From: an uncultured cyanobacterium
GTDB lineage: Bacteria; Cyanobacteriota; Cyanobacteriia; Cyanobacteriales; Nostocaceae
Length of the DNA stretch: 64,000 bases
Direction of reading: 5' to 3'
NCBI GenBank assembly: GCA_963706595.1
Contig: OY970166.1
Coordinates: 3,040,001-3,104,000 of the forward strand
Below, in pieces: positions 51,589-60,382 of this stretch. Numbering within the stretch: the first letter of the stretch is position 1; each line of letters opens with the position of its first letter. A model generated the notes under the pieces. That model saw only the letters and a program-made list of their open reading frames with translations. It did no database searches and had not been told where the DNA came from. The position numbers and the translations under genes were made by a program.

Positions 51589-51966
51589 GGGACTAAAAAA
51601 TCAAATAATTATTTGTAGGGTGGGTTAGGAGGCTAGTCCGTAACCCACAATTATCCTGAAGTTTATGGTGGATTAAGCGATCGCTTTCCCCGACTACAAT
51701 TTTTGGGTAATTTATTTTTTGGTGTTCCCTAAACGCCGATAAATGCTTAGTGTTCAGCCACCAATTGGCCTTTAAATCCCGGAGATTTGAGTGATGAATT
51801 GCAAATTTATCTGATAAATGTGTCGGTGGAACGTTTCTCGAAGAACCCCACCCCCAACCCCCTCCCCGCAAGCGAGGAGGGGGCTATGATCGCGATCGCT
51901 ATTTGGAATTTGGAATTGAGTTTATTATTTGGTAGAATTGCTTCCAGCCGGGCGTAGGCGATCGCC

Positions 51967-52167
51967 TTATTTCTCTTCATCCTCTCGGCGGCTAATCTGT
52001 TGCAGTACGGGAATGCACTGGTTAATTAGCCAAATCAGCGTTTCTGTCACCGAGTCACCTTGTTGAATGCGGTCTGTAGCTTGGATACCAGCTAGTAGAA
52101 CTTTTAAACTTAGCAACACAGCTATTAATTTTTGATTGCGGCGGGAAGTAGATTTCTTAGCTGACAT
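51967..52167 (-). CDS. Small hypothetical protein divergent from the NACHT gene
   Basis: 66 aa, basic N-terminus plus hydrophobic helix; AGGTG RBS before ATG 52167. Confidence 0.6.
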   Translation of the reverse strand: MSAKKSTSRRNQKLIAVLLSLKVLLAGIQATDRIQQGDSVTETLIWLINQCIPVLQQISRREDEEK

Positions 52168-52326
52168 TTGATTCACCTATGTGGTTGACTAGGTGAATTA
52201 TTTTTTTGGGTGTTTCCCCAGACACGTTACCCATGCAATGTCTATAATGCTTGTATCACTTAGGTTTGCAGCTTGGGGAAACTTATTTGTTTGGGTAATG
52301 CTAGTTTCTTAAGATTGTCTTTATAA

Positions 52327-55300
52327 ATGCCAAGGAATATTTGTTGGGATGAATCGGTTTTAGAGAATGTGCTGATTTTGGTAGAAGCTTTAATGCAACT
52401 GTCTGAACTGCAACCTGAAAACTTACAACCAAAACCTCCACTTTATGTTCAGTGGGAAGCTGATAATAAACTGCGCGTTACAGGATACGAAACCAAACCG
52501 ACACGAGGAAAAATAGCTAGAACAGTTGAAGTTGGCACAAAGAAGGAACACTTACTCAAGCTTGTGACAACGGTAGGTAAAACCTTAAAACTGCGTCAGC
52601 GCCGAAAAGGACCTGTTAGAAGTCAGCTAGAAAGAGAATTGGAAGAAGTGCAATATTTTTTCGACAGTCTCAGAGAATTGAAACTGATAGATAAATTCAT
52701 ACAGAAGCAAGGTTATTGGAAATTTACGCTGACGCTGAAACATCAAACTGCATCAAAGCAAGAGAATTTGCAGGTGGTGAAGCAGAAGTGGAACGAACAC
52801 CCCAAGACAAAAGCAACTTCTCAGATTATCCTAACCACTGATACAAGCATTGACTGGCGCGATATTTGCCACAAAAGGCTGGAAAAGCAGCAAGAAGATG
52901 CACAACTCAGACACAAAGCCACAGAGAAAGGTTTTGAAGTCAATGTTTATGTTCCTTTAGGACTGGTGGAACGCAAACAGCAGCAACGCCGAGGTGAACA
53001 CGAACAGCGAGAACAAGAAAATCCCTATGCATTAGATAAAGAAGTCATTGTCAAAACTTATGAACGTGGCGACTTTCTTCTACAAGTGATTGGACAAAAA
53101 CCAGCCGGAAATCACAAGCATATTGCCATCATCGGAGAACCAGGTGCAGGTAAGACAACTTTATTAACTAATATCGCCTCTTTTATTAAAGACACATCTG
53201 AAGATTTACCTATCTTTATATCTCTTGCTAACTTGCAAGGAAAGACTATTGAAGACTATTTACTCAAAATCTGGCTGACTGAAGCCATGAGATTAGTTAA
53301 AGTTGTCGTCACTCCAGAAATTGAAGATCAGTTAATCGAACGCTTTAGGAAAGGAGGGGTTTGGCTGCTGTTAGATGGTGTAGATGAAATGGGTGAGAAT
53401 TCTCCCATCCAAGCATTAAGCAAAATTAATCAAGCACTCAAACAATTGCCGATAGAGGTGCGGGTGGTGCTGACTTGTCGGTTAAATGTTTGGGATGCCA
53501 ATGTTAATAATACACTTACAGGTTTTGACATCTATAAAACCCAAGAATTTAAACCAGAGCAAATTGACGACTTCATTCAGCAATGGTTTACTTGTGCCGA
53601 AAAGCAACAGCGCGGTGAAGAACTTAAGGCGAAATTAAAAGCACCTAAATATGAAAAAATCTGTAAATTGGTAACAAATCCTTTGCGTTTGGCGCTGTTG
53701 TGTCAAACTTTCTATCTGGATAAGCAAGGAGAATTACCAGAAACTAAAGCCGCCCTTTATCAGAGATTTACCCGCTATTTCTATGAGTGGAAACCTGAAC
53801 AATTTTGTGAGTTGATTAACTCTGATGATGTGAAGGATGAATTACACAAAGCTTTAAGTAAATTAGCTTTTGCAGGTATTAACAGTGCGGCTAGATTTCG
53901 CTTGAAGCGGAGTTTAGCACGGCAACAAATGGGTGAAAAGCTGTTTAAATTAGCTTGTGATGTCGGTTGGTTGAATTTAGTAGACAGGTTAGCGGGAACA
54001 GATGAAGAAGTTTATGCTTTCTTTCATCCCAACTTTCAGGAATACTTTGCAGCGTTAAAGGTTAAGGATTGGCGCGAGTTTTTTAAACCTATTCCCAAAA
54101 AACCTACGCCAGATGTTTACCGCATTTTTGAACCGCAGTGGAAGGAAGTAATTTTGCTGTGGTTGGGAAGAGAAGATGTAGAGCCGAGAGAGAAAGAGGC
54201 GTTTATTAAAGCGTTGGTGGAATTTGATGACCAATGTGGAGATTGGAGCAATATTCATCAAGTAAGACATGGATATTATGAATTTAGAGCTTATTTTCTT
54301 GCTGCTGCGGGTATTACAGAGTTTAAATATTTCCAAGCAAAGGAAATAGTTGAACAAATCCTTAGATGGGGATTTGGTAAGTTCGATATTGCGAAACAGC
54401 AATGGGTGACATTTCTTTACCCAATTGCAAACGGAATAAAAGCAGCACTCCTACAAACAGAACGCGCAACAGCCATTGATGCCTTGGTGAAGTTAATCAC
54501 CGACTCCAATGTGGATGACTCTACCAAATACTACGCGGCATCTAGCTTAGGGCAAATTGGCTCTGGCAACCAAACAGCCATTGATGCCTTGGTGAAGTTA
54601 ATCGCCGACTCCAATGTGGATAATAATACCAAACACCAAGCGGCATCTAGCTTAGGGCAAATTGGCTCTGGCAACCAAACAGCCATTGATGCCTTGGTGA
54701 AGTTAATCGCCGACTCCAATGTGGATAATAATACCAAATACTACGCGGCATCTAGCTTAGGGCAAATTGGCTCTGGCAACCAAACAGCCATTGATGCCTT
54801 GGTGAAGTTAATCACCGACTCCAATGTGGGTAACTATACCAAATACTACGCGGCATCTAGCTTAGGACAGATTCACCCAGGCAACCAAACAGCCATTGAT
54901 GCCTTGGAGAAGTTAATTGCCAACTCCAATGTGGATAACTATACCAAATACTACGCGGCATCTAGCTTAGGGCAAATTGACCCACGCAACCAAACAGCCA
55001 TTGATGCCTTGGTGAACTTCATCGCCGACTCCAATGTGGATAACTATACCAAATACTACGCGGCATCTAGCTTAGGGCAAATTGGCTCTGGCAACCAAAC
55101 AGCCATTGATGCCTTGGTGAAGTTACTCGCCGACTCCAATGTAGATAACTATACCAAACACAAAGCGGCATTTAGCTTAGGGCAAATTGGCTCTGGCAAC
55201 CAAACAGCCATTGATGCCTTAGTGAAGTTAATCGCCGACTCCAATGTGGATAACTATACCAAATACTACGCGGCATCTAGCTTAGGGCAGATTGATCCAC

Positions 55301-56610
55301 GCAAGCAAACAGCCATTGATGCCTTGGTGAAGTTAATCACCGACTCTAATGTGGATAACTATACCAAATACTACGCGGCATCTAGCTTAGGGCAGATTGA
55401 TCCACGCAAGCAAACAGCCATTGATGCCTTGGTGAAGTTAATCACCGACTCCAATGTGAATAACTATATTAAAAGCGTAGCAGCATCTAGCTTAGGGCAA
55501 ATTGGCTCTGGCAATCAAACAGCCATTGATGCCTTGGTGAAGTTAATCGCCGACTCCAATGTGGATAATAATACCAAATACTACGCGGCATCTAGCTTAG
55601 GGCAAATTGACCCATGCAAGCAAACAGCCATTGATGCCTTGGTGAAGTTAATCGCCGACTCCAATGTGGATAATAATACCAAACACCAAGCGGCATCTAG
55701 CTTAGGGCAAATTGGCTCTGGCAATCAAACAGCCATTGATGCCTTGGTGAAGTTAATCGCCGACTCCAATGTGGATAACTATACCAAATACTACGCGGCA
55801 TCTAGCTTAGGGCAAATTGGCTCTGGCAACCAAACAGCCATTGATGCCTTGGTGAACTTCATCGACGACTCCAATGTGAATAACTATATTAAAAGCGTAG
55901 CGGTATCTAGCTTAGGGGAAATTGGCTCTGGCAACCAAACAGCCATTGATGCCTTGGTGAACTTCATCGCCGACTCCAATGTGGATGACGATACCAAACA
56001 CCGTGCGGTATCTAGCTTAGGGAAAATTTTGACAAAAGAACACATGGCGAGTGTTGTCACTGTGTTGAAGAATTGTTTATCAGATGAAATTTATAAGAGT
56101 GATTTTGACATCTTCAAGGAATGTTACTCCCTCTTCTGGGACTGCGCCCAAAATCTAACCTACCCAGATTTTTATCAAGCATGGCACGCTGGGGAAGACT
56201 CAGAAAATTTAGATTCTCCTAGCGAGACTTTTACACCCCAAAACCTGCAAGCTGCCATTAACAGCGATCGCCTACTCAGTCAAACCATCCACCTCATCTG
56301 CATTGACACTAGCAAATTTATTGACCCCAATCACCCAGCATCTAAAATTTACACTGAAATCGTCAAAGCTGGCTGTCCCAAGTGCGAAGATGGTACACCA
56401 AAGACAATGACGGAACTTAAAACTTATTGGGACTTGCTAGAAACTGACAAACGTGTGGTTTTAGTGTTTTATCAAGGTATGGGTTCACAATCACAACAAT
56501 TAAGCGATCTCATCCTCAACCACCTCAGCAAATTTAACAATACCATTTGTGTCATCGGCGACCAAACAAGCGATGATATTTTAAATCGGCTGCGGAGTCT
56601 GCAAAGTTAA
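52327..56610 (+). CDS. NACHT (STAND) NTPase with HEAT-repeat array (NLR-like)
   Basis: Walker A GEPGAGKT, Walker B LLLDGVDE, NPLRL, FFHPNFQEYFAA, 15 x 35-aa HEAT repeats. Confidence 0.93.
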   Translation: MPRNICWDESVLENVLILVEALMQLSELQPENLQPKPPLYVQWEADNKLRVTGYETKPTRGKIARTVEVGTKKEHLLKLVTTVGKTLKLRQRRKGPVRSQLERELEEVQYFFDSLRELKLIDKFIQKQGYWKFTLTLKHQTASKQENLQVVKQKWNEHPKTKATSQIILTTDTSIDWRDICHKRLEKQQEDAQLRHKATEKGFEVNVYVPLGLVERKQQQRRGEHEQREQENPYALDKEVIVKTYERGDFLLQVIGQKPAGNHKHIAIIGEPGAGKTTLLTNIASFIKDTSEDLPIFISLANLQGKTIEDYLLKIWLTEAMRLVKVVVTPEIEDQLIERFRKGGVWLLLDGVDEMGENSPIQALSKINQALKQLPIEVRVVLTCRLNVWDANVNNTLTGFDIYKTQEFKPEQIDDFIQQWFTCAEKQQRGEELKAKLKAPKYEKICKLVTNPLRLALLCQTFYLDKQGELPETKAALYQRFTRYFYEWKPEQFCELINSDDVKDELHKALSKLAFAGINSAARFRLKRSLARQQMGEKLFKLACDVGWLNLVDRLAGTDEEVYAFFHPNFQEYFAALKVKDWREFFKPIPKKPTPDVYRIFEPQWKEVILLWLGREDVEPREKEAFIKALVEFDDQCGDWSNIHQVRHGYYEFRAYFLAAAGITEFKYFQAKEIVEQILRWGFGKFDIAKQQWVTFLYPIANGIKAALLQTERATAIDALVKLITDSNVDDSTKYYAASSLGQIGSGNQTAIDALVKLIADSNVDNNTKHQAASSLGQIGSGNQTAIDALVKLIADSNVDNNTKYYAASSLGQIGSGNQTAIDALVKLITDSNVGNYTKYYAASSLGQIHPGNQTAIDALEKLIANSNVDNYTKYYAASSLGQIDPRNQTAIDALVNFIADSNVDNYTKYYAASSLGQIGSGNQTAIDALVKLLADSNVDNYTKHKAAFSLGQIGSGNQTAIDALVKLIADSNVDNYTKYYAASSLGQIDPRKQTAIDALVKLITDSNVDNYTKYYAASSLGQIDPRKQTAIDALVKLITDSNVNNYIKSVAASSLGQIGSGNQTAIDALVKLIADSNVDNNTKYYAASSLGQIDPCKQTAIDALVKLIADSNVDNNTKHQAASSLGQIGSGNQTAIDALVKLIADSNVDNYTKYYAASSLGQIGSGNQTAIDALVNFIDDSNVNNYIKSVAVSSLGEIGSGNQTAIDALVNFIADSNVDDDTKHRAVSSLGKILTKEHMASVVTVLKNCLSDEIYKSDFDIFKECYSLFWDCAQNLTYPDFYQAWHAGEDSENLDSPSETFTPQNLQAAINSDRLLSQTIHLICIDTSKFIDPNHPASKIYTEIVKAGCPKCEDGTPKTMTELKTYWDLLETDKRVVLVFYQGMGSQSQQLSDLILNHLSKFNNTICVIGDQTSDDILNRLRSLQS
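54469..56028 (+). repeat. Coding tandem array, 15 x 105 bp
   Basis: acagccattgatgcctt recurs every 105 nt from 54469 to 55939. Confidence 0.97.
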
Positions 56611-57542: not shown

Positions 57543-57812
57543 CTATCCTTTACGGCTTTTCCAGTATCCAGGTTCTCGACTGCAATTTTCTAGAAGCCGT
57601 CTTACTTGTGCTAAAGCCTCATCACCTGATATCGGCTCAACAGCACCGCTACGAATTTCATCTCGCCGTCGCTTTGCTTCAGTCGTCCAAGCAGCCTCAA
57701 AAATTGGATCAATATCAAATTCTAGGCTTTCGACGAGTTTTTCTGCTAAAAAAGCTCTAGATTCGTTTGGTAAAGATAATGCTTCTTGCATCAGTTGTTC
57801 AATAGACAACAT
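57543..57812 (-). CDS. Addiction-module antitoxin (TIGR02574-like) with a toxin-derived tail
   Basis: ALSLPNESRAFLAEKLVESL..AWTTEAKRR; tail CSREPGYWKSR. Confidence 0.8.
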   Translation of the reverse strand: MLSIEQLMQEALSLPNESRAFLAEKLVESLEFDIDPIFEAAWTTEAKRRRDEIRSGAVEPISGDEALAQVRRLLENCSREPGYWKSRKG

Positions 57813-57842
57813 AATCACACAAGTGGGGTTTAACTTCTGCTT

Positions 57843-59633: not shown

Positions 59634-59969
59634 TTAAGCAACACCATAATCTGTGTACTGCCGTTTGAAAGGAGGTTGCAAACCCAAGATAATATCTTCT
59701 CGTGGTACTCCCATTTCAACTAATTCCTCAGCCGGATTCTGATCAGTTAAATTCTGCTGAAGCCAAATTTTGCCATTTTTAATGTCGAAATGCATAACAC
59801 ATCGATAAACCCGATTAAATTGCTGCCAACCCACATTCATCCACTGGTAATGGTTATGCTCAGTATCTAAGATGAGTTGAACTTCTACGTCCTGATCTGA
59901 GACATCATTACTAGCATAACGAGTCAGTAGTGTTTTAATACATTCCTGATATTTTGCTACTTTATCCAC
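59634..59969 (-). CDS. xisI: XisI-family protein
   Basis: HYQWMNVGW, HFDIKNGKIWLQ, GVPREDIILG. Confidence 0.92.
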   Translation of the reverse strand: MDKVAKYQECIKTLLTRYASNDVSDQDVEVQLILDTEHNHYQWMNVGWQQFNRVYRCVMHFDIKNGKIWLQQNLTDQNPAEELVEMGVPREDIILGLQPPFKRQYTDYGVA

Positions 59970-60382
59970 TGCACAATCACCTCATTTGCTGGATCATATA
60001 CAATTAGTGGTATTTGATATTGTTGTACCGCAATTTTGGTAAACTCAAGTTGAAAAAATGTTTGGTATGTATCCAAAGGAACCGCCAAGTATAATAATCT
60101 TTCTGGTTCAGTGGCTGCCAATGCCAGGCGATAACTGAGAAACTGTCCCAAGGCAGAGTAAAAATCTGTGATTGCAGAAGGATTTAGAAAGCTTTTGATC
60201 TCAATTGCTATTTTCTCTCCGGCTTTCTCAGCAGCAATCAATTTCTCCGCGCCCAGGTCAATCTGAAAATTGATATCGCCGAATTTAAACTTAAGTGGGT
60301 CGTTTGTAATTAACCACTGCTCTTTTTGAAGAGCTTGTTTTACCATTTCGTGAAAGATATCTTTGGCAGACACTTTATCCAC
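59957..60382 (-). CDS. xisH: XisH-family PD-(D/E)XK protein
   Basis: SAKDIFH, IDLGAE, EIKSF, ALGQF. Confidence 0.92.
   Translation of the reverse strand: MDKVSAKDIFHEMVKQALQKEQWLITNDPLKFKFGDINFQIDLGAEKLIAAEKAGEKIAIEIKSFLNPSAITDFYSALGQFLSYRLALAATEPERLLYLAVPLDTYQTFFQLEFTKIAVQQYQIPLIVYDPANEVIVQWIK

Follow-up and report, generated by a model that had tools for sequence, protein, structure and literature searches.

A conserved two-gene unit in cyanobacteria pairs an EAD4-NACHT protein with a divergent small gene whose ribosome-binding site lies in a hairpin

Results

A large NLR-like gene and a small gene diverge from a shared spacer

We analyzed 64,000 nucleotides of an uncultured Nostocaceae cyanobacterium (GenBank assembly GCA_963706595.1, contig OY970166.1, forward-strand positions 3,040,001 to 3,104,000; hereafter the window, numbered from its first letter), following up a sequence-only reading in which a nucleotide-binding leucine-rich repeat (NLR)-like sensor was proposed to switch on a small membrane-active effector encoded on the opposite strand. 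The complete NLR-like gene (52327–56610, plus strand) encodes 1427 aa, and the small gene, referred to here as the cargo gene, encodes 66 aa from an ATG at 52167 to 51967 on the minus strand, with an in-frame GTG 9 nt upstream, within the ribosome-binding site (RBS). The two starts lie 159 nt apart, as had been read. The comparisons below indicate that the pair is a real and conserved two-gene unit, apparently undescribed until now, with specific regulatory anatomy.

Linkage was examined in 80 loci that were selected solely on the small protein, as the best of 98. The loci counted here and throughout are kin rather than independent, so the counts amount to no formal test, a limit that weighs against the interpretation developed below. 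A signal transduction ATPase with numerous domains (STAND) gene faces the small gene across 149–190 bp in 74 of the 80; the divergent small open reading frame (ORF) is thus conserved beside homologs. Of these STAND partners, 73 carry EAD4, in four subtypes, and one an Xre-like helix-turn-helix (HTH); their ATPase is NACHT in 49, NB-ARC in 18 and cut short in 7. Among the remaining six loci, two are cut off by the end of a contig but still show EAD4, two have a broken partner across a preserved spacer, and two are headless remnants. Genes flanking the cassette differ widely among loci; in the window they are an O-antigen-ligase-like gene and a phosphoadenosine phosphosulfate (PAPS) reductase gene. 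Within the genus, both genes stand at this site in 4 of 10 other genomes and both are absent from 6, including one (G010) in which the flanks of the missing cassette, corresponding to 51686–56571 of the window, lie 5 bp apart. The two genes come and go as a pair within the genus.

The small gene is real and its slot is exchangeable

The cargo family occurs in 167/389 genomes of the taxonomic family, with distant members in other families. Its median dN/dS is 0.31 (1974 pairs, 79 distinct coding sequences) and third positions are the most variable; the 66-aa ORF is a real gene. Its product consists of a basic N-terminus, a hydrophobic helix (residues ~13–32), a turn at G37 and an amphipathic helix (~40–60). 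The first helix had been called hydrophobic in the sequence-only reading; it is present, but only marginally hydrophobic (KD19 1.73). The protein has no family in Pfam, NCBIfam or PADLOC and a single PHROGs row at E 0.039, the protein atlas gave nothing usable for it (0.75), and no match was found in phages. A four-copy model scored 0.51 against 0.00 for the best control, with 94% contact agreement and pLDDT of at least 77, and packs helix 1 of one copy against helix 2 of the next; this score was reached by 20/30 solved homo-pairs and 1/23 single chains, a calibration that is only rough for four copies and for the alignment of our own used here. The model supports oligomerization, not a pore. 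Processing by signal peptidase, which would make the product a secreted peptide, was set aside, the −3 residue often being large. Seven loci (L010, L011, L041, L045, L058, L064, L075) tolerate in-frame insertions of 7–23 codons between the basic tip and helix 1, and these insertions resemble dispersed repeats. At 28 loci, mostly Nostoc (L029, L031, L033 and 25 others), the DNA about 0.6 kb past the small gene holds a gene for a 130-aa hypothetical protein and a short tract of tandem repeats; the window lacks them.

Across 110 EAD4 loci, the small hydrophobic proteins encoded at the divergent position fall into at least four unrelated families (of 22, 7, 6 and 2 loci); alr0857-family proteins (4 loci) and others also occur there. 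Library scans of the cargo families yielded only alr0857 above a cut-off, and the alr0857 literature searched showed no link to STAND proteins. An identical 43-aa cargo core accompanies EAD4 subtypes A and B, which are ~20% identical to each other, and spacer layout follows the EAD4 subtype; spacer and EAD4 thus travel together, whereas cargo and EAD4 do not. Nor does the cargo co-vary with ATPase class. Two loci (L024 and L007) combine an Xre-HTH protein with the window's cargo family, and the spacer of L024 holds a 9-bp palindrome. Seven of 22 Xre-HTH STAND genes (L237, L238, L241, L242, L243, L246, L257) face, by eye, another unannotated two-helix membrane ORF across 235–300 bp, and these seven share a different upstream motif.

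A hairpin covers the ribosome-binding site of the cargo gene

Six nucleotides separate the ATG from the AGGTG RBS (52174–52178, minus strand), which belongs to the 3′ arm of a hairpin at 52171–52198 whose perfect 9-bp arms (52171–52179 and 52190–52198) are as the sequence-only reading placed them. Folding on the ORF strand gives z-scores of −3.0 to −4.5, with the RBS paired at 0.84 in the long transcript. The two further inverted pairs proposed earlier (52212–52220/52274–52282 and 52227–52233/52292–52298) are present, but rather belong to an array in which one asymmetric motif occurs five times, four of these occurrences being theirs. The 7-bp pair taken alone is at chance level and the 9-bp pairs are modest, because random 159-bp windows of the genome contain a 7-bp inverted repeat in 44% of cases and a perfect 9-bp one in 2.6% (loop 3–15) or 6.1% (loop 3–70). 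The reality of the repeats rests on conservation in relatives, not on single-window statistics.

In close relatives 88.5% of the stem pairing is kept and both partners have changed at 2 of 12 pairs, which is weak by itself. Within the window's cargo family, a hairpin covers the RBS in 28/29 loci of subtype A, 10/15 of B2, 4/5 of C and 1/2 of D; it does so also in 12/20 loci of the 22-locus family, 5/7 of the 7-locus family, 1/2 of the 2-locus family and 4/5 distant homologs. Elsewhere the counts were 0/4 for alr0857, 0/11 for other cargo, 1/52 for STAND starts and 8/250 for genome starts. The hairpins differ in sequence among unrelated cargo families, so that the covering of the RBS is conserved within the family and recurs with unrelated sequence outside it. 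Kinship with type I toxins, which had been suggested for this arrangement, holds for the sequestered RBS and the small hydrophobic product, but no antitoxin RNA was found (no Rfam match) and the locus is probably not a type I toxin–antitoxin pair.

A TTGGG(G) site array accompanies EAD4

By a site matrix, the window spacer holds five candidate operator sites: site A, with a TTTGGG core (52203–52215, plus strand), inside the spacer of the cargo promoter; its inverted partner with a TGGGG core (52212–52224, minus); a site upstream of the cargo −35 element (52225–52237, minus); site B (52270–52282, plus), downstream of the NACHT gene promoter in an autorepression position; and site C (52288–52300, plus), 18 bp after site B. 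The NACHT gene promoter has its −10 box, TATAAT, at 52243–52248 (plus). Spacing is fixed in relatives, with a site at about −138, the −10 box at about −84 and sites at about −67 and −45, and most of them have a −10-like hexamer about 80 to 87 nt before the NACHT-gene start. At the variable base, sites of one locus change together (0.68 versus 0.40 when shuffled, among kin).

We approached the association from the other side by examining 110 of the 236 EAD4 matches found in the order, 30 of them top-scoring and 80 picked down the ranking. The matrix was trained solely on spacers of the window's own family, and loci were counted when they had at least three sites within 180 bp upstream; our first site pattern had been widened after viewing the data and misses 3/5 window sites, so the matrix test carries the weight. 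Such clusters precede 34/101 EAD4 genes from other families, with none further upstream and none in the coding start, and the background in the window's own genome is 0.3% of gene starts and 0/180 divergent spacers. The array was absent upstream of Xre-HTH STAND genes (0/22). The sites are conserved and tied to the N-terminal domain to which the sequence-only reading had assigned DNA binding. A recurring divergent ORF is present in 33/47 site-rich loci versus 7/41 site-poor ones.

A wider regulon was considered and set aside: sites cluster loosely at many places in the genome (72 at threshold 8), yet the full promoter pattern occurs once, at this locus, unlike a host regulon. One EAD4 clade (L203, L206, L214, L218, L222–L225) has TTCGGG as its site sequence together with a changed helix 3; judged from these sequences, the clade is an apparent natural specificity switch. 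Plasmid-borne EAD4-WD40 genes (L262:3272-3817, L264:3351-3896) are without the array; each comes immediately after a Mov34/MPN/PAD-1 (JAB) gene, and EAD4 may have a different use there.

The predicted cargo promoter would start transcription inside the hairpin

From the alignment of relatives, we predict a cargo promoter at 52190–52225 (minus strand), with −35 GTGTCT (52225–52220), a 17-bp spacer containing the inverted site pair and −10 AATAAT (52202–52197), which would place +1 near 52190, at the end of the hairpin 5′ arm. The alignment comprised 92 distinct sequences anchored on the site nearest the cargo, of which 84 rows were used: eight rows of the TTCGGG clade were out of register and set aside, and five loci could not be anchored. 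A and T at −11 and −7, 5 nt past the anchor site, are found in 82/84 rows (other offsets, 0–2 and one 32). A pyrimidine–purine step follows 7 nt later in 23/26 distant loci and in just 55/84 overall. Outside subtypes A and D, TTG stands at 19-bp spacing in 44/53 rows (0 at 18, 2 at 17), the MerR-type arrangement of a 19-bp spacer holding the regulator site; the 31 rows of subtypes A and D, the window's among them, have GTGTCT or TTGTCT at 17 bp. Poor promoters, with a weak −10 element and 19-bp spacing, are typical of activator-dependent genes of the MerR type. Three plasmid loci with membrane cargo fit the promoter register, one by script and two by eye.

One candidate site thus lies between −35 and −10, and the implied start falls within the hairpin 5′ arm. 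In computed folds, RBS pairing of at least 0.6 is found for 79/84 long transcripts and 9/84 short ones; only a correctly started mRNA would be translatable, and the lock seems to be opened by the position of the start site rather than by an RNA or by refolding. We found no published start-site data for any matching locus. At 14/75 evaluable loci the STAND gene is short or broken while cargo, promoter and hairpin are intact, a count to which assembly errors may contribute; two of these 14 genomes have no intact EAD4 match. Broken STAND genes beside intact cargo are expected if the cargo is harmless, or if it is off by default and depends on an activator, and do not suit a repressor restraining a lethal gene. 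Most likely, the sensor activates the cargo promoter.

The large protein and its EAD4 domain

By Pfam, the large protein reads EAD4-NACHT-HEAT-NCC-H-NCAB1, the tripartite build of bacterial NACHT proteins; its closest named homologs, at 80–82% identity, are from Nodularia, which places the source among heterocyst-forming cyanobacteria. The NACHT domain (aa 266–422; 53122–53592, plus) scores 49.3 bits against a cut-off of 26.7, and its Walker A (GEPGAGKT, aa 270) and Walker B (LLLDGVDE, aa 347) motifs are intact, in keeping with the Walker A and D[GAS]hDE Walker B signature of bacterial NLR-related NACHT proteins. A HEAT-repeat sensor region follows (54475–55896, plus), and NCC-H (aa 1259–1287) and NCAB1 (aa 1304–1415) close the protein (56101–56571, plus). 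The EruA model gave 46 bits, far under its 1000-bit cut-off. The HEAT region comprises 13 counted, near-identical 35-aa units, and the total length of the protein differs widely from one relative to another, a pattern that suits a rapidly changing sensor.

The N-terminus, described earlier as winged-helix-like and without a recognized motif, is a named domain, Pfam EAD4 (PF19959; aa 9–156, 52351–52794, plus; E 1e-17, 65.3 bits against a cut-off of 27), which is matched by all 44 aligned N-termini of relatives and occurs in 163/401 genomes of the order (236 matches), several of which have 2–5 matches. A second copy was not found in the window genome (G000; single contig, 94% complete), so that no homotypic EAD partner is available there. 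The proposed fold stood up as a model, with a winged helix bearing a beta insertion. AlphaFold gave pLDDT 89 for the window domain and 81 for a relative of compact subtype, and fold searches against 48,161 chains returned best matches of Z 5.9 (rmsd 3.0, 79 aligned) and Z 7.3 (rmsd 2.4, 79 aligned), respectively, where the tool's mark is 8. Judging by their titles, nearly all of the top 50 rows of both searches are winged-helix proteins, including CRP/FNR/NtcA, CooA, Cdt1/ORC, ETS, Fur, IscR and CodY. A sequence search of solved structures with EAD4 gave two rows only (E 0.099 and 1), and the protein atlas held nothing usable for it. The fold of EAD4 is likely a winged helix.

Two further NACHT genes of the same genome (C1:4317075 and C1:3818257, minus strand) have different N-termini and no site array. 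One has an HTH-like N-terminus and faces a 125-aa ORF at 246 bp; the N-terminus of the other is presumably AlbA/Schlafen-like.

Neighboring features of the window

A 50-bp element at 51840–51890, just past the small gene and near the variable cassette edge, has dozens of identical copies genome-wide and also occurs in same-genus genomes; as a genome-wide repeat it was ruled out as part of the unit. A second dispersed repeat of ~120–150 bp lies at 51610–51735, with copies across the genus. Located 1–4 kb downstream are a 91-aa gene (57543–57818), which we assume resembles an addiction-module antitoxin, and a gene pair (59634–60382) that we take to be XisH/XisI-like.

Discussion

The structure and regulation of this unit are well supported by computation; that the small protein acts as an effector and that the unit serves in defense are proposals. 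None of the in silico outcomes that could have refuted the sequence-only reading was observed: the modeled fold, the divergent ORF, the hairpin and the conserved sites agree with it. It needed correction on the N-terminal domain, which has a name, on helix 1, whose hydrophobicity is marginal, and on the comparison with type I toxins, for which no antitoxin RNA was found in Rfam. As a whole, we consider the account of a transcription-gated two-gene sensor-effector unit evenly poised between right and wrong. The NLR-like protein would sense a cue, probably an invader, through its repeats, and its NACHT ATPase, by analogy with the family, would change the state of the sensor. The modeled winged helix of EAD4 would bind the TTGGG(G) array in the shared spacer, which we hold to be very probable. 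Sites just downstream of the NACHT promoter would damp the sensor's own gene, and through the site between −35 and −10 of the weak divergent promoter the switched-on protein would fire the cargo gene. That the EAD4-STAND protein controls the small gene is probable, and that this control is activation we favor somewhat more than its opposite. Correctly started mRNA would begin within the hairpin and leave the RBS open, and longer leaky transcripts would fold and stay silent according to the computed structures. The product, modeled as a helical-hairpin protein, would assemble head to tail in or on the membrane, and the oligomer may then arrest or kill the cell, the weakest step of the scheme; we see the cargo as a membrane-active defense effector with slightly less than even confidence.

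Several observations weigh against this interpretation. Neither EAD4 model reaches Z 8, Foldseek returned nothing at E 0.001 for the window model or for the compact subtype (best 0.032), and some winged helices do not bind DNA. A defense library search gave no match for EAD4 or for the cargo. About half of the EAD4 genes lack the array: 41/110 EAD4 loci have at most one site, some within operons, and 5/11 plasmid loci have none at the strict threshold, with membrane cargo in just 3/11. Subtype B1 has the hairpin in only 1/7 loci, and some slots hold soluble cargo and no hairpin, as in the alr0857 family (0/4). The window spacer measures 17 bp rather than 19, the base at the predicted +1 is a pyrimidine in many close relatives, and the promoter register is weakened by the rows set aside and the loci that could not be anchored. 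The short transcript of the window is still 0.65 paired (−4.4 versus −11.6 kcal/mol for the long one). A site between −35 and −10 fits repression equally, and helix 1 of the cargo is a marginal membrane span, with KD19 of at least 1.6 in 50/79 sequences.

The regulator and sites could be as proposed and the small protein instead a signal or modulator, either a membrane-anchored feedback regulator or a cue to filament neighbors, much as AfsS is the small regulatory product of a STAND transcription factor in the available text of its description (10.64898/2026.09.02.748808). The soluble, non-toxin-like cargo of some slots, the marginal hydrophobicity of helix 1 and the persistence of cargo after loss of its partner, as of a harmless gene, all suit this reading. 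RBS hairpins, however, accompany membrane cargo and not soluble cargo, as expected if leakage is costly, and direct feedback on the sensor is unlikely because the type of cargo follows neither the EAD4 subtype nor the ATPase class; we regard the signal or modulator as a doubtful alternative, and the best of those considered.

A little less probable, and in our view unlikely, is repression of both promoters by the EAD4-STAND protein, with sensing de-repressing the cargo, or a purely autoregulatory role for the sites. Positions within the cargo promoter spacer and just past the NACHT promoter are both typical of repressors, and some EAD4 genes have the array but no recognizable cargo (14/47 without a clustered ORF). 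This must be set against loci in which cargo, promoter and hairpin are intact next to a cut or lost EAD4 (L019, L027, L035, L052), some of these breaks perhaps being assembly errors, and against the poor cargo promoter, whose weak −10 element and frequent 19-bp spacing resemble activator-dependent promoters.

It is improbable that EAD4 acts here as a homotypic protein adaptor, with a host factor binding the array and the small gene merely a co-regulated neighbor. EAD4 is listed among predicted effector-recruiting domains in the available text of PMC7159879, several genomes hold more than one copy, and array-free EAD4 genes exist, some of them inside operons; yet the single EAD4 of the window genome would be without a partner, the once-only promoter signature does not resemble a host regulon, the variable base co-changes across the sites of a locus and Xre-HTH STAND genes lack the array. 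Least credible, to the point of being highly improbable, is a hairpin serving mainly as a plus-strand terminator for polysaccharide-gene read-through or antisense RNA, with the small gene a type I toxin under a cis-antisense antitoxin: the plus-strand hairpin (−14.3 kcal/mol, then a T run) could terminate transcription and the upstream flanking genes run in that direction, but the T run shares bases with site A and the −10 box and, by eye, does not occur in subtypes B and C or in the C-terminal-transmembrane family, where RBS pairing is kept, there is no Rfam match, the hairpin was not called in a terminator scan, and the fixed link to a STAND gene would go unexplained.

Many cyanobacterial NLR-like genes have non-enzymatic N-termini, and the proposed transcription-gated unit would give EAD4, a common one among them, a concrete output, defined down to its site, promoter, start point and target. 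If it is correct, the Pfam domain would be reassigned, several unannotated families of small membrane proteins would become NLR effectors, control of a gene through a DNA-binding tip would be an undescribed mode of action for such immune-type sensors, and it would be clear why a test of such an NLR gene that left out the divergent gene and the spacer might reveal no effect. More speculatively, there may be a widespread cyanobacterial immune class in which NLRs, in place of using a fused enzyme, kill or isolate the cell by switching on an exchangeable divergent pore-forming peptide, under the two-key safety of an activator-dependent promoter and a hairpin from which only correctly started mRNA is free, with EAD4 as the DNA-binding domain and the same logic having arisen with Xre-HTH and its own sites; we advance this tentatively and think it somewhat doubtful.

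Parts of the arrangement are familiar. MalT is a STAND activator whose asymmetric boxes are arrayed between divergent promoters, and it has a C-terminal LuxR HTH and metabolic targets; the present unit has a comparable array between divergent promoters, but its modeled HTH is N-terminal. MerR binds inside a 19-bp −35/−10 spacer, divergent from its own gene, and has neither ATPase nor repeats; the spacer of this locus's subtype is 17 bp. With type I toxin–antitoxin systems the unit shares a small hydrophobic protein, marginally so here, and an RBS hidden in a hairpin; it differs in the fixed pairing with a 1400-aa sensor, and in a lock apparently bypassed by start position, and the Rfam search found no antitoxin RNA for it.

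Bacterial NLR-related NACHT proteins share the D[GAS]hDE Walker B, the HEAT sensor and the NCC-H and NCAB domains with the large protein. The available text of their survey lists winged HTH (wHTH) domains among possible transcriptional outputs, keeps EADs and wHTH as separate classes and describes no target gene, operator or divergent cargo (10.1101/2022.07.19.500537). EAD4 is described, in the accessible parts of two papers, as a non-enzymatic, N-terminal alpha+beta adaptor of multicellular cyanobacteria whose predicted role is to bring in effectors by way of another EAD4 copy (PMC7159879; PMC8195603). The window domain belongs to EAD4 by sequence, but has no second copy, is modeled as a winged helix and travels with a DNA array. 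The literature searched, which lacked most subscription journals, described neither DNA binding by EAD4 nor this cassette.

The closest known system is AfsR-afsS of Streptomyces (10.64898/2026.09.02.748808). As far as the available text goes, AfsR is a tripartite protein of NLR type that uses its N-terminal DNA-binding output to bind repeats in the promoter of the small gene next to it and turn that gene on. As in AfsR- and MalT-type control, the promoter of the proposed target contains repeated sites here, namely the five-site array. AfsR is SARP-NB-ARC-TPR, and afsS lies downstream and encodes a regulator of antibiotic synthesis, according to the same partial source; here, EAD4 is joined to NACHT or NB-ARC, and the target, for which we propose activation, is divergent, exchangeable, mostly a membrane peptide and preceded by an RBS hairpin.

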